64,000 bases of DNA from Hormiphora californensis (taxonomy: Eukaryota; Animalia; Ctenophora): positions 3,596,001-3,660,000 of the forward strand of contig CM035356.1 in assembly GCA_020137815.1 (NCBI GenBank), written 5' to 3'. Position numbers and translations under genes: made by a program. Shown piece after piece: positions 1-44,617 of this stretch (the stretch's first letter is position 1; every line of letters begins with the position of its first letter). The notes below the pieces were generated by a model. The model worked only from the letters and a program-made list of their open reading frames with translations, was not told the DNA's origin and searched no databases.

Positions 1-965
1 CTTACCTTCCCTACCTCCCATTTACTCCATCTCTCAGCTTCCCTACCTCCCATTTACTCCATCTCTTACCTTCCCTACCTCTCATTTACTCCATTTCTCA
101 GCTTCCGTACCCCTCATTTACTCCATCTCTCAGCTTCCCTACCTCCCATTTACTCCATCTCTCAGCTTCCTTACCTCCCATTTACTCCATCTCTCATTTA
201 TCCCCTGAGAGATGGAGTAAATGGGAGGTAGGGAAGCTGAGAGATGGAGTAAATGGGAGGTAGGAAAGCTGAGAGATGGAGTAAATGGGTGGTAGGGTAG
301 CTGAGAGATGGAGTAAATGGCAGGTAGGGAAGCTGAGGGATGGAGTAAATGGCAGGTAGGGAAGCTGAGAGATGGAGTAAATGGGAGGTAGGGTAGCTGA
401 GAAATGGAGTAAATGGGAGGTAGGGAAGCTGAGAGATGGAGTAAATGGGAGGTAGGGAAGCTGAGAGATGGAGTAAATGGGAAGTAGGGAAGCTGAGAGA
501 TGGAGTAAATGGGAGGTAGGGAAGCTGAGAGATGGAGTAAATGGGAGGTAGGGTAGCTGAGAGATGGAGTGAATGGGAGGTAGGGTAGCTGAGAGATGGA
601 GTAAATGGGAGGTAGGGAAGCTGAGAGATGGAGTAAATGGGAGGTAGGGTATCTGAGAGATGGAGTAAATGGCAGGTAGGGAAGCTGAGATATGGAGTAA
701 ATGGGAGGTAGGTAAGCTGAGAGATGGAGTAAATGGGAGGTAGGGAAGCTGAGAGATGGAAACGATTATGGATAGGGATTCCCCTAATCGTTTCCATCTC
801 TATGCTTCCCTAATAGGGAAGCTGAGAGATGGAGTAGATGAGGAGTAGGGTAGCTGAGAGATGGACTAGATAAGGGGTTGGGTAGCTGAAAGATGGAGTA
901 GATGAGGGGTAGGGTAGCTGAGAGATCGAGTTGATGAGGGGTAGGATAGCTGAGAGATGGAGTAG
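1..965. repeat. 32-bp tandem minisatellite with an orientation switch near 200
   Basis: Unit CTGAGAGATGGAGTAAATGGGAGGTAGGGAAG recurs at 205, 237 and onward. Positions 1-196 hold the reverse complement. Copies become degenerate after about 820. Confidence 0.95.
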
Positions 966-1006
966 ATCAAGATCAAGAAATATTTGATTCGGCACCGACC
1001 CTCTCT

Positions 1007-1896
1007 CTACTCCTCGATGTTTCCCGCATGTTCTGCAGCTGCTGTGTGAGAGTTGAACGCGAGCGCGTCAATAACATGACACGACATGCAACACGACATG
1101 CGAGATGCGAATTTCATTATTTTGAAGTTTTGTGGGGTTGCGATTTTTGTTTTAGGTCGGAGAGTGAAACGGCCGGTACAGTGGTAAACTAGATTAAAAA
1201 CTGTACGCCTCGTTAGACGGCGATTTTTCCTATCTTGTCTGGTTCCTGAGATATGGCCCCCTAAAGAGTTGGTGTCTCAAACTGCTGAATCGGGGTCACG
1301 CGAGGAAAATGGGCATCAGTTTGCGTGTACTGCTCCGTTTTTCACGGGACTTGAACGAGGGTGACGGCAAGAGTCTCACCTATTACATGGTATCCTTACA
1401 TTGTGTATTAAATCTAAAATGACTGAGCAGCATGCTTGTTAATGAACCTTGACGTGTTTGCTTGTCTCGCGAGCGCGCTCGCGACTAGCAAACACGACAT
1501 GCAGTTCACACCCTGAATATAAAAACTTTATTTCCCGATTCCCGTTCGATAAAACAATGTTTCTCTAACCTGTTCCAAAGATATCCGTGTTATCGGAGTT
1601 TGTAACAGATGCCTTAGTTGAGGTCGGGATGGCGGGCAGTGGATTGGCATCCCAAGTTTTAACGAAAGCCATTTCTCTTTCTTCCTCCTGCGAGTCTCCC
1701 ATTTCTGATCCATCAGAATTCTGACAGGGAGGGACAGAAATTGAGCGTTAAATATAATCTTGTAGACAAAATATTTTAACAAAGAACTAAAAGGGATCAT
1801 TGTATTTTAGACAAAAATTGAAATTAAACAGGTTACATCACTTACCAGTCTGATTGGTATAATAGCATCGGTGTTTTTAGAACTGTTACAACCCAT
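1007..1896 (-). CDS. Small orphan protein (about 78 aa) with N-terminal MGCNSSK acylation motif; exons 1896-1846, 1720-1570 and tentatively 1041-1007
   Basis: GT-AG boundaries with consistent phases give MGCNSSKNTDAIIPIRL|NSDGSEMGDSQEEEREMAFVKTW...DIFGT|AAAEHAGNIEE*. A polypyrimidine-AG lies 8 nt before the ATG. The last exon is uncertain. Confidence 0.55.
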
Positions 1897-2921
1897 GGTT
1901 CAATCTATAATAAAAGATAAGAAAAGTTGAGTTGTAGATCAATACCAAAAACGATCCTATGTAATGATCGAAATACGGATAAAGCATCACTAATATCTGA
2001 TTTCTGAATAAGTTCTAAAATACAAGGGATTACTCTGTTATATAATAGTCAGTTAGCTCGCATGACAACTTCCGCGAATGATTCGTTGTTACTTGTTGAG
2101 CATCATAATCGTATAAATAATATACAAGGCCAGGCACACCTAAGCTTACAGTTTAAAACTATTTAATCACTCATGATCAGTCATCACACGTGTCACGTAA
2201 TAATACGCAACTGCTACAAAGATGTCATAGCTAACAAAACGCCCATTTGCTGTTTATGCAAAATTTATTCCTTCAATCATTATAGGATGCGTATGGAGAG
2301 CTACTGAGCTGAGGTCAATCACTGACCAGTGACCACTAGTCAGTGGGGGGGGGGGGCAAGTCCCAGGGTTTTTGTGGGGATCTTACAGTTTAAAACTGTT
2401 GTTTTACGGTTAAATAGGGCCGAGAGGCCTCGCCAGCTCCACCGCTCCTGGTCTGAGGATGTCGGTTGACACTCCTCGCATCCTCCACTGAAATTGTCCG
2501 GCCCGATGCCGTGACAGAGTTTTGGAGCCGTAAGCCGCTGCACCACGTCAAGGCTCCTCCTCATGCGAGCGGTTTGTTGTTGATGTTATTGTTAGTGTTG
2601 TGATTCGGATTATGCAAAGCAAATCGCCTCAAACTTTCCAAGGAGTCTAACTCCCAGACTAACCAAGTGAAACTTGCGAGTTACTTAATATGAGTTTGGA
2701 ACAAGTTAACGTCGCGTTTTGCATTTAAGAGTGTCTTAAGATGGGTTGTTCTGTCTAAAGATAGCATTTTATCTCTAAGTGTGTCTTGGATTTGGGCTAG
2801 ATCTATGTAACTTGTTGCCTTTACGAGTACTGTCTATCGGTGTTGTTGTAAACAGTATAATCCCTTCCCGTCCCTTCCTATGCATGGGTGACAAGACACC
2901 ATTCTCAAGTGGAAACCAGTT

Positions 2922-3450
2922 TTGTTTCTTCAGACCTATGGTAATCACATCGTTTCTTACGAAAGTTCGATACTTTCAAATCCGTTACCCACTTCGCTGT
3001 ATCTCACAAAGGACTATTGGGAGAGATTAAAAGTTCTCGACCTGATGTCTCTTCAACGTAGGAGACAACGTTACATGTTGATACATGTGTGGAAGACGAT
3101 CCATGGGTTTGTTCCGAATTCTGCAAATCTTGTGTTCCAACACAGTGCAAGGCTGGGTATGAGGTTAGTCCCGCCAATGTTTCCACATCGGGCTGAGACC
3201 TGGAGAGCGAATCAGTACCATTCTTCTTTCGGACCGAGAGCTGCTCACCTGTGGAACAGGTTGCCAGCGGCCGTTAACTCTTGCGGAAGCTTAGGTCAAT
3301 TCAAATCATCCCTGGGCAATTACTTGACAGGCTTTTATGACCGTCCCCCTGTCAGAGGCTATCCATCACTTCCCAATGATATTTCCCCTCAATGTGCTGT
3401 TAATGTCTGAGAGTGGCTGAGAGGTGATACGTGTTTTAATTTATTTAGGT
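2922..3450 (+). pseudogene. 3' fragment of a CR1-like LINE ORF2 (post-RT region)
   Basis: YWERLKVLDLMSLQRRRQRY...WNRLP...FKSSL motifs are typical of the CR1-group ORF2 C-terminus. The copy is 5'-truncated and degenerate. Confidence 0.8.
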
Positions 3451-3658
3451 GGACCCACTAAGGGAAGGCCTGTTGTGTACACTAAAACTTTTATTGTAAA
3501 CTTGTAAACTTGTAAACTTGTAGTATTGACAACATTGTCGCTTATCCTTATGTTTTATGCTGTTATCGTTATTGTAGCATTTCATCTTTAGAGAGACGGT
3601 AATCTTGTTTACTACGTCTTGTTGCAAAGATGTGCACAGGTGGGCAGACCAGACTGAG

Positions 3659-3955
3659 AGTGGTCATCCGACATAATTACCATATCTCGACGTGAACTTC
3701 GACCTGGAATGCGACGAGAATTAGCAGGCGTTCAGTTATGAACGCCTGTTGAAATTTGACCAGATCAGAGAGACACGCCGCACTTAGCAAATGCTATCGC
3801 GCTTCAATTCTTCTCTCTCGTTAGTCTTTACGTCTCTCTCACTACGAATACGCGGCAAATTTCAACAGGCGTTCATAACTGAACGCCTGCTAATTCTCGC
3901 CGCATTCCAGGTCGAAGTTCACGTCAAGATATGGCAATTATGTCGGATGACCACT
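3659..3955. mobile_element. MITE with about 100-bp terminal inverted repeats
   Basis: AGTGGTCATCCGACATAATT...CCTGTTGAAATTT (from 3659) is mirrored by AAATTTCAACAGG...GTCGGATGACCACT (to 3955). No clear TSD. Confidence 0.85.
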
Positions 3956-4224
3956 GTCATGTGATGGTTTTGGTATAAGTCGCATTGACGCATTACTCAT
4001 CATTTTAAAATCGGGAGCTAGGGAAGTTGCTAAACACATTCAACGACTATACCTCATTAGGTGATACCTGGTACTCTCTTAGGATCTATCTCCGACATGT
4101 TTAATAACTTCGTAGGACGGTATTGGGTGGCGTTTTCAGTTCTGTTCAGTTCAAGAATTTGTGAAACAAAGGATACATTGAACTAATTAATCGCGAAGCT
4201 CCTTTTATTGTATAAAACTATGCA

Positions 4225-4267
4225 TTTCAAACACTTTTCAACACTACTTTAAACAAATTAATTTGAG
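4225..4267 (+). other. Spliced-leader (SL)-like sequence at the LINE 5' end
   Basis: TTTCAAACACTTTTCAACACTACTTTAAACAAATTAATTTGAG. The 3' 35 nt match the cydippid ctenophore trans-spliced leader as I recall it (not database-verified). It is followed by GTTCCG rather than a consensus GTAAG donor. Confidence 0.8.
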
Positions 4268-4455
4268 GTTCCGTTCAACTGCTCCTCGTTACTCTTCTAA
4301 GACTTCTGCTCAATCCCTCTTATCTCAAGACAAGACAAGCCTGGTGTTTCTGTCTCTTTCTAAGTTGAGCAGATCTTGGGAGACCTCGTTGAGCCAAATC
4401 CAGGAAGCCAAATCTTGGTGGATCGGATCCTCGCGCCACTGTTACAGGATATAGA

Positions 4456-5763
4456 ATGTCGGGATTGGCACCCCAGTATGAAAGTGGAACGAAGAAGGAC
4501 TTCGAAGGTAAGCTCCTTGTCACGAGCTTCTCTGACAAATGTAAAGGCAGTACAGTGTGGAAGAAATTGGAGGAGGATGCTGGTACCCCGGGTGAGCCTA
4601 TGGATGCTCCAGGTGGACCTACGAAGAAGGATCTTTGGCAGATGTTGATTATGTGTTACCGGATGCTTCCGGATAGTTCCCGGTGTCCTACACCATCGTC
4701 TGATTCTGGAGTCTCGATTTCGAGTGATGATCTGAAGGATGGTTTCTCAAAACTGAAGCAAGAGTTGATGGATAGCCTACCTGGACTCATGGCCCCAGTA
4801 GTTAATGAGATATTGAAGAAGAATCGAGAGGAGAGTGAAGTAGCGTGTAGTTCTGGTCAGCAAGAGAAGAAGCCTGCACCAGCTACCCCTGTGAAACGGT
4901 ATATGAGCATCAAAGACAGCAATGAGGAAGGAGTGACTCCGATGTGTGAGGAGAAGTGGAAAATGGTAGTGAAACCGAAGGTTGTGAAAGCTCTGAAGAA
5001 CATCCCCGTCTTGGACACGTCGGTGAACAGAAAGGGTACTCAGTTGTTTTTTGCAACTGATGATGACCTCAAAGAGGCAGAGAAAGTGCTGTCCCCGTTT
5101 CTGGATGTTACTCCGTTTGTTGAGAAGCAGAAGAAGATGGACCCTCGGCTAATGATTTCTGATCTGGATCATGACCTGCTGAACAAAGAAGTGCTACTGG
5201 ACGCTATCTTGAGTGATAAGAATGAAGTGGTGAAGAGGCTACATGAGTCTGGGCATGCTGTCAGTGTCATTCATGTTAACACTGCTGGGAGGTATGCGGT
5301 GCTCAAGGTTACACCTGAGGTTCGAGAAGCCATTGCGGATAATCGAGATAGGATTTTCCTGAAATTAAGACAGCACATTGTGAAAGACAGATTCTACGTT
5401 ACTCAGTGTTTCCACTGTCAGCGTTATGGACACGTAGCTGGATCTGTCTATTGTCCTAGTAAAGATAAAAGCGCCACATGCGCATTCTGTGCAGGAGATC
5501 ATGACACCAGACAGTGTAGGGCGAAGAGTGGGAACGAACTCAATCGGATGAAGTGTGTAAACTGTGATGTTGGGGGTAGTAAGGATGACAAGAAGTATGC
5601 GAAATCCCATCCAGCATCAAGTAACTTGTGTCCGCATTATGTTAATGCTCGAGGAAGACTGATGGAAAACACAAGTGGTGTCAGTAAGGAGAGAAAAAAC
5701 GCTTATCTGACGAGGGCGTGGGAGGAACTGAAGGTAAAGAGACGTGGCGTGTTGGCACACTAA
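4456..5763 (+). CDS. LINE ORF1p (gag-like, zinc knuckles), 435 aa
   Basis: QCFHCQRYGH...C, CAFCAGDHDTRQC and CVNC...H...C knuckles near the C-terminus, directly upstream of ORF2. Confidence 0.9.
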   Translation: MSGLAPQYESGTKKDFEGKLLVTSFSDKCKGSTVWKKLEEDAGTPGEPMDAPGGPTKKDLWQMLIMCYRMLPDSSRCPTPSSDSGVSISSDDLKDGFSKLKQELMDSLPGLMAPVVNEILKKNREESEVACSSGQQEKKPAPATPVKRYMSIKDSNEEGVTPMCEEKWKMVVKPKVVKALKNIPVLDTSVNRKGTQLFFATDDDLKEAEKVLSPFLDVTPFVEKQKKMDPRLMISDLDHDLLNKEVLLDAILSDKNEVVKRLHESGHAVSVIHVNTAGRYAVLKVTPEVREAIADNRDRIFLKLRQHIVKDRFYVTQCFHCQRYGHVAGSVYCPSKDKSATCAFCAGDHDTRQCRAKSGNELNRMKCVNCDVGGSKDDKKYAKSHPASSNLCPHYVNARGRLMENTSGVSKERKNAYLTRAWEELKVKRRGVLAH

Positions 5764-8677
5764 ATGTACACTCGATAATGAATAAAACGTCTGGGGTTAT
5801 AGCGCATCTTGAAGACATGGAATGTGATATCTGTCTGATTCAGGAAACCTACTTGAAGACTAGTGATACTGCTAAACTTCAGGAGATAAGAGACTATGGC
5901 TGGAATATTTTCTCATCCCCCAGAGCGGAGAGGGCAGGAGGGGGTATTGGGATACTCTACAGGGATGGAGTGAAGATGAAACTATCACCAGTGCGGAAAT
6001 TCGATCGTTCCAGATTCAGGAGATTTTAATTGGTAATGGAATGGACCTTACTCGGATATGTAATGTTTACAGACCGCCCTATACCGGTAAAGCTAGGTTC
6101 ACTGAAGCGAAGTTTCTAGAGGAATTTACAGACTATCTCTCAGAGCTAGTAGTGAATACTGGTCTTCCCCTTATTATGGGAGACTTTAACTTTCAATGGC
6201 AGGATAGGGACAACTTCTACACTAAAAAGCTTGCTGAACTCCTAGACTCTTATGAGTTTCCTCAGCTTGTCCCCAGGCAACCAACACACAATCGTGGAGG
6301 TACTCTTGACCTGGTTATATGTCCAAAGGAGGTAGAGGAGAAAGTTAAATCTGTGGAAATACATCCTGAGGGAACAGAGTCTGATCATTTTCTTGTCCTG
6401 AGTGAAGTCGTACTGGAGACTAAGGTTGGAAACCTACAGCAACGGGATCGAGTTAACACCTACAGAGACTTTAAATCAGTGGACCCGGTATTGTTCATGA
6501 AGGCCCTCAGAGGAAGAGGCCTTGAGGGGCGGTTTGATTTGGATTCCCCAGATGATTTATTTGAGATCTATGAAAGAGAACTGAAGGAGTTAGTGGATAG
6601 TTTTGTCCCTTTGAAGAGAAGAAAGAAAGTGAAAACGGTTCGCCCGTGGAGAGACAATGACGATGTCAGGGATGCACTAAGAAGACGTCGGGTTGCGGAG
6701 AGAGCTTGGAGAAGCAAGAAGACGCCTGTTACGAAGATGCAGTATAACGTGATGAAGAAGATGTTTAGTAGAGTAGATAAGGAAGCGAGGACTAACTATC
6801 TGAAAGAAGATCTTGAAGAATCAAAAGGGGATTCCAAGACGTTACAGAGGAAACTAAACCGCCTACTTGGAAACAGTGAGGTAGTGTTGCCAGATGTGGA
6901 TTGTGATCGTAAACTAGCCGAGGATTTTGCGGACTTCTTTGCTGGAAAAGTGGAAAAAATCAGGAACTCAGTGAAAGCAGATGTGGACTCTCCTGTGGAG
7001 GAAGTGGACTCTTGTGTGGACCTGAATAAGGATTGTATTCTTGAGGAATTTAGGGAAGTCTCTGAGGATGAGATGAAGAAGATCATTAAGAACATGTCTG
7101 ATAAAACATGTGATCTTGATCTTATACCGACATGGTTGATCAAAGAGTGTGTGGAAGTTTTTGCCCCACTCTTTACTAAGATTATCAATTCTTCTATCCG
7201 GCAAGGTATTGTTCCAGAATTGTTCCAGCAAGCACTGGTTTTTCCAACCATCAAGAACCCTTATGGTGATCGAGATAGCCTTTCCAACTACCGTCCTGTA
7301 TCTAACCTTCCCTTTGTCTCTAAGGTTCTAGAGAAAGTTGTCCTTGATCAACTGAATCAGGCTTTGAATGAAAATGACCTACTCAACTCTCACCAGTCAG
7401 GATATAGAGTTGGTCATTCCTGTGAAACTCTACTCATGGGGATGTTTGATGATCTACTGCAGGAGATGGATAAGGGAAACGTTGTAGCTCTACTCCTGTT
7501 GGACATGAGTGCAGCGTTTGACACGGTTGACCATGCTAAACTTGTGGATGTTTTGAGGAGGAGATTTGGAATAAGAGGAACAGCTCTCAAGTGGTTTACT
7601 AGCTATCTTGGATCGAGGAATTTCAGAGTCAACGTCAGAGGAGAACTTTCGAAGATTATCTACCTCATTTGTGGAGTGCCCCAAGGGTCCCTTCTTGGAC
7701 CGGTTTTGTTTCTTTTATATGTTGAGGAACTACAGGATCTGGTAAACAAATATGGACTCAAAATCAAGCTCTATGCAGATGACTCTCAAATTTATGTGAG
7801 TCTAGTCCCTCTTGATGAAAGTGGATGGAATATCACAAGGAGGAAAGTAGAAGAGTGTCTTGATCAGATCAAGATTTGGATGGTTCAGCATTGGCTGAAA
7901 TGTAATGAGTCGAAGACGGAGCTCCTTCTTCTAGGGAAGAGCAGTGCAATTGACAAGCTGGCTTTTGAGCCCTGTATTAGGTTTGGAGATGCAGATATCT
8001 ACCCAGTTGACTTCACAGGTACTACCGGAAAGACTCTGGGTATTTATATGGATGAGAACTTGACATTGGAACGTCAGGTGAACAGTGTCAAAAGAAACTG
8101 TGGAATGTTACTGAGGAATTTGTGGCAGGTCCACCGATGCTTAGACTTCTCTACCAGAATCCTTCTTGTTAAGCAGCTGGTTATATCCCGCTTGGATTAC
8201 TGCAATGTCCTCTACGGAGGTTTGCCAATGAAGCTCATCTCTCGGTTACAGAAAGTGATCAACTCTTGTATAAGGTTTATCTATGGACTCCACGGTCATC
8301 AAGAGGACTACCTCCCTTACATGAGAGAAACCCACATTCTTCCTGTGGAGCAACGAGTGATCTTTAAGGCCTGTCTCATGGCCTATAAGATTGTACATGG
8401 AAGTGCTCCAGATTACCTCATCGAGCAAATACCTACAGATATTGTTGATGTTACTTGCCGTACCAGATCGACTGCTGTTCCAGACCCTTATAAGCTCCAG
8501 TACCCGAAGCTGTCGAGCATTAATGCCAATTCTAAACTGAGGAAAAGGAGACCATCTGTTCTCCTGCCAGATCTGTGGAATGCACTCCCCCTTGAGTTGC
8601 GATCTCGGCCTACTGCGGAATCTTTCAAGACGGGTTTAAAGACAAGATTGTTTGTGGATGCCTTTGGATCAGGCTAG
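5688..8677 (+). CDS. LINE ORF2p (AP endonuclease + reverse transcriptase), broken by an apparent 1-nt deletion near 6003
   Basis: APE motifs TLNVHS, IQET, GGGIG, VYRPP, MGDFN, LDL and SDH. RT motifs YRPVSNL, QSGYR, LLDMSAAFDTV, GVPQGS and YADD. L2-like C-terminus SRLDYCN...WNALP. Shifting frame at 6003 restores ...KF(R)SFQIQEILIGNGMDL. Confidence 0.92.
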
Positions 8678-9854
8678 TTCCGGTTGTTTTCTCCTTTGTT
8701 CCAGCCTACTTCTTTTTCTCGGTACCTGTACTCCTCCCATCACGCTGTACTGTCTAGCGTAAGTATTGTACTTAGGTCTGTATCTTACCTCGTGACAAGT
8801 TTTTAACTTAGCTTTATTCTTTGAGTTTGCGGCATGAGTGAAGCACGAGTGTGTAATATTTTTCCGTTTTTCATTTTTCCCAGTTGTTTCAGAATCTGTT
8901 CTCTGAACATTTCATCTGTGTCTATATATATATGGAGTGATCAAGTGACAGTGGTGACAATTACCTGTGGCCTTTTTCGAGTTTTTTTTCTAATTTTGTC
9001 TGTTATGAGCCTAATCTGTTTTCCCACATATGTGAGCCGGATAATTTGGATTTTCCACCGTTTTTTTAGTAGTCTATTAAATTGGGTCAAGTGTTAGTTA
9101 ACTGCTCTGAGTTTCTTTCAGTGGCAGCATCTGTAAAGCTCTGCTGTCCCTGTAGAATATGGGCAGGATATAAGTTTGAGTATTATTATTATTATCATTT
9201 GTAAACCTTGGAAGACGTTCTCAGGGGGCCTAATCCGTGATGAGTGAGCTCAGAGCGAACAAATTGAAAATTGAAATTCAAGTTTTGAAAACCGAGAAAA
9301 TCTGAAAATCTGAATTTCAATTTACCGAAACTTCGAATAAATTTAGGTTTCGCGCCGCGCATTTGTGTAGCGCGCAAATAAATGACGCGCGGCAATTATT
9401 ATATTTTTGAGTATTTTTGGCAATTTTTATATCACCACTCACCAGTGATCGATATGGCTGGTGGTTCCGCCCTGATTTTGATTGACAGTGTGCTCATATT
9501 GGGCTGGCACCGCCAGACAGATATAGCTCCCAGTATGGGATTGTGGCGAATGAAGTCCCAATTCGAGTAAAAATTAAAAAGCCTCCAATAAACCCTCCAA
9601 TAGAAGTGAAAACAAGTTGGTTCATTGCAACAAATCAAATTTTGATTATGTACCACATACACACACAAAGAAGAAACAAATTAAACTCCTCGCTCAATCA
9701 ATATAACAGGCCATTTTATCTCAATATGAAGTTAGGATTCCCTTATATTCTCGATTCGTCAAAAACATATCATAATGTTAAATCTACATTCTACACAAGA
9801 AAGACTCTATCACATCCATCCCAGAAGCCCCAAAAATTATAGTTTCTGCTAATT

Positions 9855-15935: not shown

Positions 15936-17506
15936 ATGCAAAAAAGGGTCATAAGTCGACCTGCTAGACCGTTGTGCAAGAAAAGTGGATCCGTAGATTC
16001 CTCAGACAGGTAAGTTTCTTTACTAACTTGAAACTTGAAACTTGAAAAATAATTGAGGCTATCAAACAAATGACCACCTTTCAACTCAACTGTCCTTTCC
16101 TCGCTCATCACTTCTAAACTCAACAAATTGAATTTCAATTCTCAGTGGTCCCTGGTGCTTCCACCACCTCCTTCCCACGAATGAAGTAATGTTTTCCAGG
16201 AGACCTTTGCACCATTTTCTTCAGTCGATCAACAAGCTGTCTTCTCTCATTTCGTTCCTCCAAAGTCCTGTCAGGCGAAATGAAGACCTTATCGAATTTG
16301 CCGGTCCTTTTTAGTCGGGATTTTTTCGACAGGATCGACATCTGAGCGTCTCTGCTCTTCAGTACGACTTTCACTGGTCTGACAGTTAAAGACTGCCTTC
16401 CCAAGCGCTCCACTGATTTCACGTTCTGAGTCTCTCCTAGCTCAACAAGAAGAGACTCTACTTGAGTTTCAAGCTCCACACTACTATTTATTGACTCTTG
16501 CAGGCCATGGATGATGATGTTACACCCACGGTCCTCAGAGGCTGCCACAATAGCTGATTGAATTTTCTAAATCACGATATCAGGCGTCTACAGTTTAATA
16601 TCATTCTTTTTTTAGGTCGATAACACCAACAGAAAATGAAGTCAAGGAAAATCATCCTAAAACCCCCAACATAAAACCAGTTCGGACTGGTGTCATCAAG
16701 ACTCCAACGAAGCAGACTCCAACAAGGACACTCAAACCTGCCTCTCGACTAGCATCTCCTCGTGTTATCAAAGATAAAGTGTACGTATTTAAGGAATTTT
16801 CATTATTTGCACAGTGGCACTTATATTAATCCCATTGCAGATCTAAAACGGATAATCCCCGAACCCCAATAACTCGTTCTGCAACACCCAAGAAAGGAGG
16901 CACATCGCCACATTGGAAGGCACCTTCCAAACCACAGGAAGGCTTTGGGCACGTCAGACCATTGCCTGGTAGAGGTGGACCAAGAAAGCAGAAGAAGGTG
17001 TACAACCCTTCCTCACTATTTTCACTTTGTCAGGGAGCTGTAACAACCCTTGTTGTCCCAACCGAGGTAATTAATTCTCAAAGCATGGTTCTAGAATGCT
17101 TGTCTTCATCTGCACATTAATTATATCCCTCTCTCAGATTTCTGATATATCTTGTAGAACGTGTGTCGTGTAGCAGCAGTAGCAGTAGAGGTTACCATGT
17201 TTTTTGTCTATCCAATATCTTCTCTCTTCTCCATTCTCTTTCGTTTGCAGGTGTTAAAAATTCTATGCTTGTTTTCGTCATGTTGATCTCTTCGTTGTAC
17301 TGGAGAAAAATAACAATAGCTGATTGTAGTAATGATTCCTCTCTCTCTTTTCTCTCTCTCTCTCCCTCTCTCTTTAATTATATTCCATTTACCGCCCTAC
17401 TCCGGGCCGGGGCCAGGGGGTTGACATGCATAAGAAACCCCTTCATTTATCTAGCTACATAATGCATCTCTCGTTAGTGAATCCTCTCTCTCTTTCTCTC
17501 ACTCTC

Positions 17507-22901: not shown

Positions 22902-44617
<21,716 letters not shown>

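Follow-up and report, generated by a model that had tools for sequence, protein, structure and literature searches.

A LINE retrotransposon of Hormiphora californensis that starts with the host spliced leader, and a possible life cycle dependent on trans-splicing

Introduction

LINEs of the L2/CR1 group have two open reading frames, of which ORF1 carries knuckle motifs and ORF2 encodes an AP endonuclease (APE) and a reverse transcriptase (RT), and they end with a tandem-repeat tail next to a short target-site duplication. A basic problem of LINEs is that the promoter and the 5′ end must be regenerated after each passage through RNA. The known solutions are internal promoters and self-cleaving ribozymes that act on read-through transcripts.

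Retroelements have been found in contact with the spliced leader (SL) of their hosts in several ways. NeSL and CRE1/SLACS/CZAR elements, which possess a restriction-like endonuclease, use leader genes as insertion sites (PMC4640811). In dinoflagellates, trans-spliced host mRNAs were reverse-transcribed and integrated with their leader, and re-splicing at an internal AG of such a relic generates tandem relics (PMC3229502, citing Slamovits and Keeling 2008). In flatworms, genomic leaders without an SL RNA intron lie beside LINE or LTR elements at 6 and 597 loci (Boroni 2018, PMC5832876; Calvelo 2025, PMC12582326). As far as the accessible text of these two papers goes, the loci were treated as discarded loci, Boroni 2018 left a chimeric assembly possible, and the integration of trans-spliced retrotransposon RNA was suggested in passing, which means that the idea of a trans-spliced LINE, raised in an initial annotation of the DNA analyzed here, had already been proposed for flatworm retroelements. 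In Hydra, about 30% of the Iso-Seq reads of transposable elements (TEs) carry the SL (PMC12220107), and a further study linked trans-spliced genes to a LINE/CR1 repeat (PMC6362198). In Hormiphora, 56% of the Iso-Seq reads carry the SL (PMC8527503). We found no ctenophore report of SL-headed LINEs, and Derelle et al. 2010 or the supplements of PMC8527503 might mention leader-headed repeats.

Results

The window, which is the whole 64-kb stretch of DNA analyzed, contains an SL-headed APE-RT LINE of 4.97 kb between CATTT duplications; all features described below are on the plus strand. The assumption that the 5′ end of this LINE is the spliced leader of a cydippid ctenophore was borne out by alignment, as window 4233–4267 agrees at 35 of 35 positions with the 3′-terminal 35 nt of the 44-nt H. 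californensis leader in PMC8527503. The same 35 nt end the 43-nt SL exon in an SL RNA gene array (L068). The chance expectation of a 35-nt leader match within the window is about 1e-15, and 4233–4267 is the only SL-like site in it, the runner-up having 14 mismatches in 35 positions.

The leader match is prolonged upstream through 4225–4232 with two extra bases. Comparison with the L068 leader showed that 4228–4232, at the 5′ junction, consists of leader bases plus a 2-nt duplication, which is likely due to slippage as reverse transcription ended. The left 5-bp CATTT copy is at 4223–4227, and as its last three letters fit the leader as well, the 5′ boundary is either 4225 or 4228. Contig 1 of DNA run X1, which is possibly the window's own source sample, had no differences over 4205–4258, including the 5′ junction, and the join of flank and leader is bridged in X1.

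At the other end of the leader, it meets the LINE precisely at the SL donor site, with no SL RNA intron in between. True SL RNA genes continue with GTAAGC after the leader (L068 and 25 X1 contigs), whereas the window runs into the LINE 5′ UTR. SL RNA genes fold as three stem-loops, and we rejected the possibility that leader plus UTR constitute an SL RNA gene, as there was no such fold (z 0.4–0.8). A TTTGAG ahead of the tail of the window LINE looks like the end of the leader, but the related full-length locus L049 has not retained it, and we regard the likeness as chance.

The empty allele was found in a second individual (DNA run X5, contig 17). It has one CATTT and no SL, skips 4224–9196, and joins 4223 to 9197, with four letters fitting either side. 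Leader, LINE, and tail were thus inserted as one unit between the CATTT duplications, the right copy of which is at 9196–9200, in agreement with the initial annotation, which had noted CATTT on both sides. The window LINE was recently inserted.

The 5′ UTR (4268–4455), which is not the SL RNA intron, measures 188 nt, close to the 190 nt initially estimated, and is 87% identical to the UTR of L049. A long hairpin is predicted at 4281–4394 (z −3.8), and L049 has the same outer helix (z −2.65), but this hairpin is not general (z −3.7 in L066, −0.7 in L020, −1.5 in L032, and +1.5 in L029). A candidate acceptor-like pyrimidine-AG motif just before the ORF1 start (4440–4447) was recognized by eye in 7 of 8 aligned sequences. 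ORF1 (4456–5763) encodes a gag-like protein of 435 amino acids with 31 homologues and, as judged by eye, Cys/His knuckle-type motifs. No Pfam family matched it; its Atlas leads were zf-CCHC and gag-like clusters, all under 0.9, and the zf-CCHC matches in L020 and L066 were weak, below the cut-off. A slippery-type heptamer (5694–5700) lies in the overlap with ORF2, which is in the −1 frame. As a heptamer of the same slippery type is present in all six L2-like members, a programmed frameshift is possible, judging from the sequence.

ORF2 (5688–8677) encodes the APE and the RT (Pfam PF03372, PF14529, and PF00078) and is followed by the 3′ UTR (8678–9180), the last 175 nt of which are 75% identical to L049, and by a (TAT)5 tail (9181–9195); TAT-type repeats likewise end L049 and L032. 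The LINE had been described as full-length, and all parts are indeed present. The copy is nevertheless not intact, as one frameshift breaks ORF2 near 5999–6000, where contigs of X1, X5, and X7 have one base more. APE and RT in ORF2, the simple-repeat tail, the target-site duplication, and the dispersed multi-copy family together identify an APE-type two-ORF LINE. The summed contig depth over the LINE body was far above that of the flank in X1, X5, and X7, although depth does not equal copy number. The element likely belongs to the L2 group, within an RT tree that holds proteins without clade labels, and its C-terminal motifs presumably resemble those of L2. An Rfam gathering scan of the window gave no matches, and an Rfam E-value scan of 13 loci detected 5S rRNA in L068 only and no ribozyme. 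There is no evident sense gene upstream of the window copy.

We scanned metagenomes for exact matches to 25 nt of the leader, and LINEs with a diverged leader or none could therefore not appear among the 106 SL-bearing loci found. LINEs account for eight of these loci. At nine of the 106, the SL is preceded by non-leader DNA longer than 15 nt; these nine are one SL gene array, six LINEs (by domain or ORF1 match), one probable ORF1-only element, and one unassigned locus, and none of them was a recognizable host retrogene. Two of the loci, L049 and L032, are further full-length LINEs, and L049 has an SL–LINE join like that of the window. Every element locus is joined at the donor position, and the LINE-side position of the join is constant within a family. 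No match to the leader pattern was found in viral or prokaryotic contigs.

The SL–LINE join recurs in three DNA runs (X1, X5, and X7), of which X7 has a second species label, and sister subfamilies under the two species labels have an identical SL join. In X5, at least three junction contigs had depths of 788–4980, as compared to 321 for the single-copy flank. In X7, at least five junction contigs above depth 250 reached 252–1108, as compared to 21–32 for the flank, and one X7 contig runs unbroken from leader through UTR into ORF1 (4251–4758). No Logan contig had 31 letters on each side of the join. The RNA runs X13 and X15 each hold small shares of the element, and no SL–LINE junction contig was among the matches listed for them; both consist of assembled contigs, from which neither the start of an RNA nor a connection between flank and leader can be read. 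X13 also showed no cis- or trans-spliced join between the leader and an acceptor further inside the element, which carries no weight given the lack of coverage in that run.

Comparison of 5′ junctions, as proposed at the outset, thus revealed the SL at the head of many copies, from many families, whose flanks are unrelated. Between the family groups (the window/L049 group, the L020 group or L029, and L066), ORF1 identity is 31–47% and 5′ UTR identity only 0.42–0.53, which is about the shuffled level. The leader is unchanged across families, also beyond the search pattern, up to the cut of each copy (28–43 nt kept). Where the 5′ cut of an element locus is visible, 1–15 leader bases are lost in 10 of 11 cases. 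The SL-headed L2-like members span a whole RT clade (41 of 122 proteins). In L063, ORF1 is unrelated and the APE is distant, and L096 and L101, which show a shared short UTR motif but no Pfam or BLAST match, could not be assigned to a type of element.

None of 107 matches had a leader 12-mer within 150 nt downstream, and this absence of tandem relics is in keeping with splicing at the terminal AG, but just as much with a lack of any re-splicing. Immediately after the leader, a T was found in 5 of 9 element lineages, which were counted by hand, versus 11 of 93 mRNA-like contigs (p 0.004), indicating that the element joins differ from ordinary acceptors. One X5 contig of depth 4527 has its start right at the AG (4266), and the zero-difference junction contig listed has a depth of 1944, in a listing beyond which lie a further 29 loose ends and 1970 pieces; copies with another 5′ neighbor, i.e., SL-less source copies, may therefore exist.

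Discussion

We estimate a probability of roughly 70% that this LINE is copied from SL trans-spliced RNA and that these LINE lineages have renewed the leader repeatedly instead of inheriting it from a single capture long ago. The reverse transcription of a trans-spliced LINE RNA, which the initial annotation had inferred, draws support from the insertion of the SL with the LINE, the donor-site join, and the recurrence in families. Repeated trans-splicing is favored over one ancient capture by the UTRs, which have diverged to shuffled-level identity next to an unchanged SL.

In the proposed cycle, transcription would begin at or upstream of the AU-rich (77% AT) relic leader of a genomic copy, and this relic would serve as a discarded outron. 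A fresh capped leader would then be joined at the relic's terminal AG, the only AG left in 5′-shortened relics. Such re-splicing would restore a capped, full-length 5′ end, leave no tandem relics behind, and make good the usual loss of 1–15 nt on insertion. Promoter-less transcription by host read-through is a more tentative part, to which we give a little less than an even chance. We are somewhat more doubtful about the complete model, in which LINEs of more than one clade in pleurobrachiids, together with the non-autonomous ORF1-only elements that accompany them, are all promoter-less, use the relic as outron and acceptor, and have their capped template rebuilt by trans-splicing in each cycle. 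Against re-splicing, GAG makes a poor acceptor, and the relic seems to offer only a short distance to a branch point.

The alternative that deserves most attention, although we consider it unlikely, is a single ancestral trans-splicing event, after which the leader was inherited in cis and kept by selection, for example as part of an internal promoter or for translation. LINEs with internal promoters retain their 5′ ends, and the leader of nematodes functions as a promoter element in Ascaris. An old capture would account for the absent tandem relics, the T-rich first base, and the short conserved UTR motifs beside the leader and before ORF1, and one capture could serve all L2-like SL-headed members, as these form one clade. 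However, the leader would have had to stay identical to that of today's host during the decay of the UTRs next to it, although the leaders of Mnemiopsis and Hormiphora have mainly the last 8 nt in common (PMC8527503). Moreover, L063 and the ORF1-only elements would need separate captures, and the repeated loss of leader bases on insertion should erode the end over cycles. Less probable still are master copies, one or a few per family, with a normal upstream promoter, outron, and acceptor, of which the SL-headed copies would be dead-end offspring. The deep X5 contig starting at the AG is in line with such sources, as are the frameshift of the window copy and its lack of an evident upstream sense gene. 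Yet a LINE moves only through RNA and would lose its outron at the first move, so that new families must descend from SL-headed parents. In addition, the unbroken X7 contig shows no break at 4266–4268, the place at which a copy with an outron would diverge, although contigs can drop rare variants, and no loose end before 4266–4268 was seen among those listed.

Two further explanations were judged far less probable. A single template switch to SL RNA or to an mRNA capped with the SL could be invoked, and so could a chimeric assembly, because highly repeated leader copies invite mis-joins and because the 5′ junction has a 2-nt duplication. U6/L1-type snRNA–LINE chimeras contain the whole small RNA including its 3′ part and have variable LINE positions; here, in contrast, only the SL exon is present, and the LINE-side position is constant within a family. 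No SL RNA intron or mRNA remnant lies between leader and LINE, X1 bridges the flank-to-leader junction, and the recurrence at the exact splice position, in sister subfamilies, L049, and three DNA runs, largely refutes a one-off event. The other explanation, also raised initially, is that the LINE inserts specifically into SL exons or SL RNA genes, in the manner of NeSL and CRE/SLACS. Potential targets would be abundant, with 718 leader copies in the genome (PMC8527503). However, the empty X5 allele has no leader, which means that the SL arrived with the LINE and excludes SL-site targeting at this locus. The target-site duplication lies outside the leader, the flanks of other copies are unrelated to one another and to the SL-5S repeat unit, and the ORF2 endonuclease is of the APE type and not restriction-like, with no other endonuclease family matched. 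We therefore give targeting hardly any weight, even less than a template switch or chimera.

A spliced leader that renews itself would give LINEs a third way to regenerate the promoter and the 5′ end, and under the complete model many of the 718 unexplained Hormiphora leader copies would be LINE heads. SL-headed LINEs offer an explanation of why leader copies are dispersed by the hundreds in ctenophore genomes; these copies should not be counted as SL RNA genes, and the leader provides an exact marker for full-length LINE 5′ ends. With its chromosome-scale genome, long-read RNA data, and laboratory culture, Hormiphora makes direct testing feasible.

Compared with the described systems, the window LINE resembles NeSL and CRE1/SLACS/CZAR in being a non-LTR element that adjoins leader sequence, but it encodes an APE and carries the leader into unrelated sites. 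As at the flatworm loci, a genomic leader without the SL RNA intron adjoins the element; the empty allele, the junction position, the family comparison, the life-cycle model, and the other phylum go beyond the accessible text of those reports. The dinoflagellate relics likewise have a genomic leader that heads a retroposed RNA and is joined at the donor position, whereas in Hormiphora the retrotransposon itself is the cargo, the AG available for splicing is the terminal one, and no tandem relics were found. As described for Hydra in the accessible text, TE RNAs appear to use the host trans-splicing machinery, but there the finding concerns the RNA level only, while in Hormiphora genomic LINE copies begin with the leader. 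With L2/CR1-group LINEs, finally, the window LINE shares apparent knuckle-type ORF1 motifs, an APE-RT ORF2, a tandem-repeat tail, and a short duplication, and it differs from them in that its 5′ end is a host trans-spliced exon and not an element-specific sequence.

Anatomy and insertion of the LINE

Positions 4233-4267, at the 5' end of the LINE at 4225-9195, are identical to the last 35 nt of the published H. californensis spliced leader (PMC8527503) and to the exon of the SL RNA genes in the metagenome locus L068, a tandem array linked to 5S rRNA. This is the only leader-like site in the window (chance expectation about 1e-15), and the match points to a pleurobrachiid ctenophore as the likely host. 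The leader is followed by a 188-nt UTR, a 435-aa ORF1, an ORF2 encoding AP endonuclease and reverse transcriptase, a 3' UTR, (TAT)5 and a second CATTT, and the initial annotation's description of leader, LINE parts and CATTT was thus borne out. By its motifs, the element is a probable member of the L2 group. Near 5999-6000, ORF2 of the window copy alone is frameshifted; contigs from the DNA runs X1, X5 and X7 (the last under a second organism label) have one more base there.

ORF2 starts within the last part of ORF1, in the -1 frame (5688-5763), and in the window copy no ATG precedes the first endonuclease motif. Within this overlap, six of six elements (the window copy and loci L049, L020, L032, L029 and L066) have a slippery-type heptamer made up of six A followed by C or T. 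A programmed -1 frameshift is possible from this arrangement, conserved Lys-Asn could also account for the heptamer, and no strong downstream structure was predicted. An acceptor-like pyrimidine-AG motif just 5' of ORF1 (4440-4447), retained in otherwise diverged UTRs in our alignment, could serve in splicing to give an additional, short mRNA of leader plus ORF1.

Four of the 22 listed runs were aligned to window positions 3960-9460. In X5, which has the same organism label but comes from another sample and study, one 1282-nt contig runs from 4223 straight into 9197 and lacks the 4973 nt between them; its flanks show about 5% differences plus gaps, and this empty allele has a single CATTT and no leader. 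The filled allele was found in X1, with flank running into leader (3960-4258), although X1 is possibly the window's own source and counts as non-independent. As the empty allele has one CATTT and no leader, leader, LINE and tail entered as one unit, the LINE bringing the leader along, and the polymorphic insertion is likely young. The targeting alternative of the initial annotation, insertion at an SL exon, is thereby ruled out at this locus, where no pre-existing leader was available.

Upstream of the LINE lie a long inverted repeat that looks MITE-like by eye (3660-3960), a 3' fragment of another LINE with CR1-like motifs, ending in an 8-nt tandem tail (2892-3530), and a repeat resembling, by eye, the flank 5' of the leader in locus L101 (2450-2560). 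An inverted pair (32856-33054 and 33414-33615) with an 81% match to the 3' end of the mRNA-like locus L055 is probably a MITE.

The leader is joined at the splice donor position

After the exon, true SL RNA genes read GTAAGC (25 X1 contigs and L068), and their predicted RNA forms three stem-loops, the first of which contains the donor. The LINE departs from the SL RNA gene directly after the last G of the exon. The exon is therefore joined at the donor position without intron, as splicing would leave it; a template jump to the complete SL RNA would not be expected to give this product. The 778-bp unit of L068 (263-1159), repeated in tandem, combines a 5S rRNA gene with one for SL RNA, and Rfam had no match for the predicted SL RNA.

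Recurrence within the family and across families

A search with window 4205-4312 in X1, X5, X7 and the RNA run X15 found, among the matches listed, contigs crossing from leader to UTR in all three DNA runs (at least seven in X1, three in X5 and six in X7). Their depths, which are rough and not copy numbers, were 4980, 1944 and 788 in X5 (single-copy flank 321), and 252-1108 for five contigs and 3.7 for one in X7 (flank 21-32). Several are 2-6 letters away from the window sequence and continue into other UTR variants, indicating that sister subfamilies share the join. No junction contig among the matches listed had 31 letters on each side, as expected when contigs built from short words are broken by a 43-nt repeat. 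In one X5 contig, a leader shortened to 18 nt follows at least 255 unrelated letters. Another of the X5 contigs listed, of depth 4527, begins at the AG itself and may represent copies whose leader is much shorter or whose upstream neighbour differs; it tells against our reading. No leader-LINE junction contig was among the matches listed in the RNA runs X13 and X15, where element shares are small.

Scanning metagenome contigs for an exact 25-nt leader gave 107 matches at 106 loci, all of them leader-bearing by the design of the scan. Judged by eye as a group, 93 loci are mRNA-like, their leader lying at the first bases of the contig or close to them; one, with two matches, is the SL-5S array, and 12 are element-like. 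Eight of these are LINEs, by APE and RT (L049, L032, L029), APE in Pfam (L066, L063), ORF1 and part of APE in BLAST (L020) or an ORF1 match (L098, L105). L054 and L009, which match each other, are probable ORF1-only elements, and L101 and L096 were placed in neither group. Short contigs carry many L009 relatives, and the clusters of these are mostly assigned to Ctenophora. At nine loci (eight element-like and the array), the leader is preceded by more than 15 nt of other DNA, and such flanks suggest that the element-like contigs are genomic; in the source assembly of L009 and L063, the other leader matches look like mRNAs. Every element-like locus is joined at the donor position. The 11 with a visible cut retain 43, 42, 42, 42, 41, 41, 41, 40, 38, 35 and 28 nt, L049 and L096 having only 5 and 1 flank letters.

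In L063, L101, L054, L096 and L009, the first 60 nt after the leader reveal very short UTRs; a small GC hairpin motif immediately precedes the start codon in four and is partly present in L063, and four of the five open with a pyrimidine-AG no more than 6 nt from the leader. On the minus strand, 16026-16568 is an L054 copy (88% over 542 nt) that is truncated at its 5' end and has a 6-nt tandem tail; its longer L054 and L009 relatives start with the leader. The leader-headed 5.7-kb contig L004, with two intronless G-alpha-like ORFs in tandem, is possibly an operon transcript.

ORF1 identity between L2-like groups is 31-47%, and UTR identity among the window/L049 group, the L020 group or L029, and L066 is 0.42-0.53 (shuffled means 0.44-0.50); between L029 and the L020 group, UTR identity is somewhat higher (0.59-0.63). 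In the midpoint-rooted RT tree (122 of 124 proteins; L066 and L020 represented by P0103 and P0077, respectively), the SL-headed members are spread over a single clade of 41 (support 0.995). The leader is identical across all these groups, its last 25 nt being set by the search and the unselected evidence lying in its upstream part and the run contigs. Leader-headed LINEs are real and family-wide.

Origin and maintenance of the leader

Leader and LINE inserted together, the join is exactly at the donor, and it recurs. We infer, with a probability of about 0.7, that these LINEs are routinely copied from trans-spliced RNA and that their leader is renewed. The leader follows the present host leader while adjoining UTRs have decayed, and most insertions clip it, so that erosion would be expected without restoration. 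Ctenophore lineages moreover have differing leaders (PMC8527503). The main rival, in which one or a few captures long ago have since been maintained by selection, appears unlikely to us. The source-copy model seems more doubtful still; an X7 contig runs continuously from 4251 to 4758 and shows no branch at the point expected for a copy with an outron.

As leader AGs occur only at positions 1-2 and 42-43, clipped relics offer the terminal AG only. Resplicing there would leave no tandem relic, and tandem relics numbered 0 of 107. A pyrimidine-AG within 6 nt after the leader in 23 of the 93 mRNA-like contigs indicates that an AG close by on the downstream side is not necessarily preferred. The window LINE lies about 660 nt beyond the stop of an opposite-strand gene with a gelsolin repeat, which we take to be Sec23-like, and no long sense ORF was found upstream; the window copy therefore has no evident read-through source. 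A promoter-less, self-renewing cycle is plausible, albeit unproven.

Comparison with known systems

Among the papers listed by full-text literature searches and the passages covered, none reported a ctenophore leader-headed LINE. For Hormiphora, 718 genomic leader copies are given, in the passages covered without a link to LINEs (PMC8527503). Leaders occur on TE reads in Hydra (PMC12220107), relic leaders are described in dinoflagellates (PMC3229502), and SL-targeting elements have been described as well (PMC4640811). In flatworms, leader sequence adjoins retroelements, and integration of trans-spliced RNA has been proposed as the source (Boroni 2018, PMC5832876; Calvelo 2025, PMC12582326).
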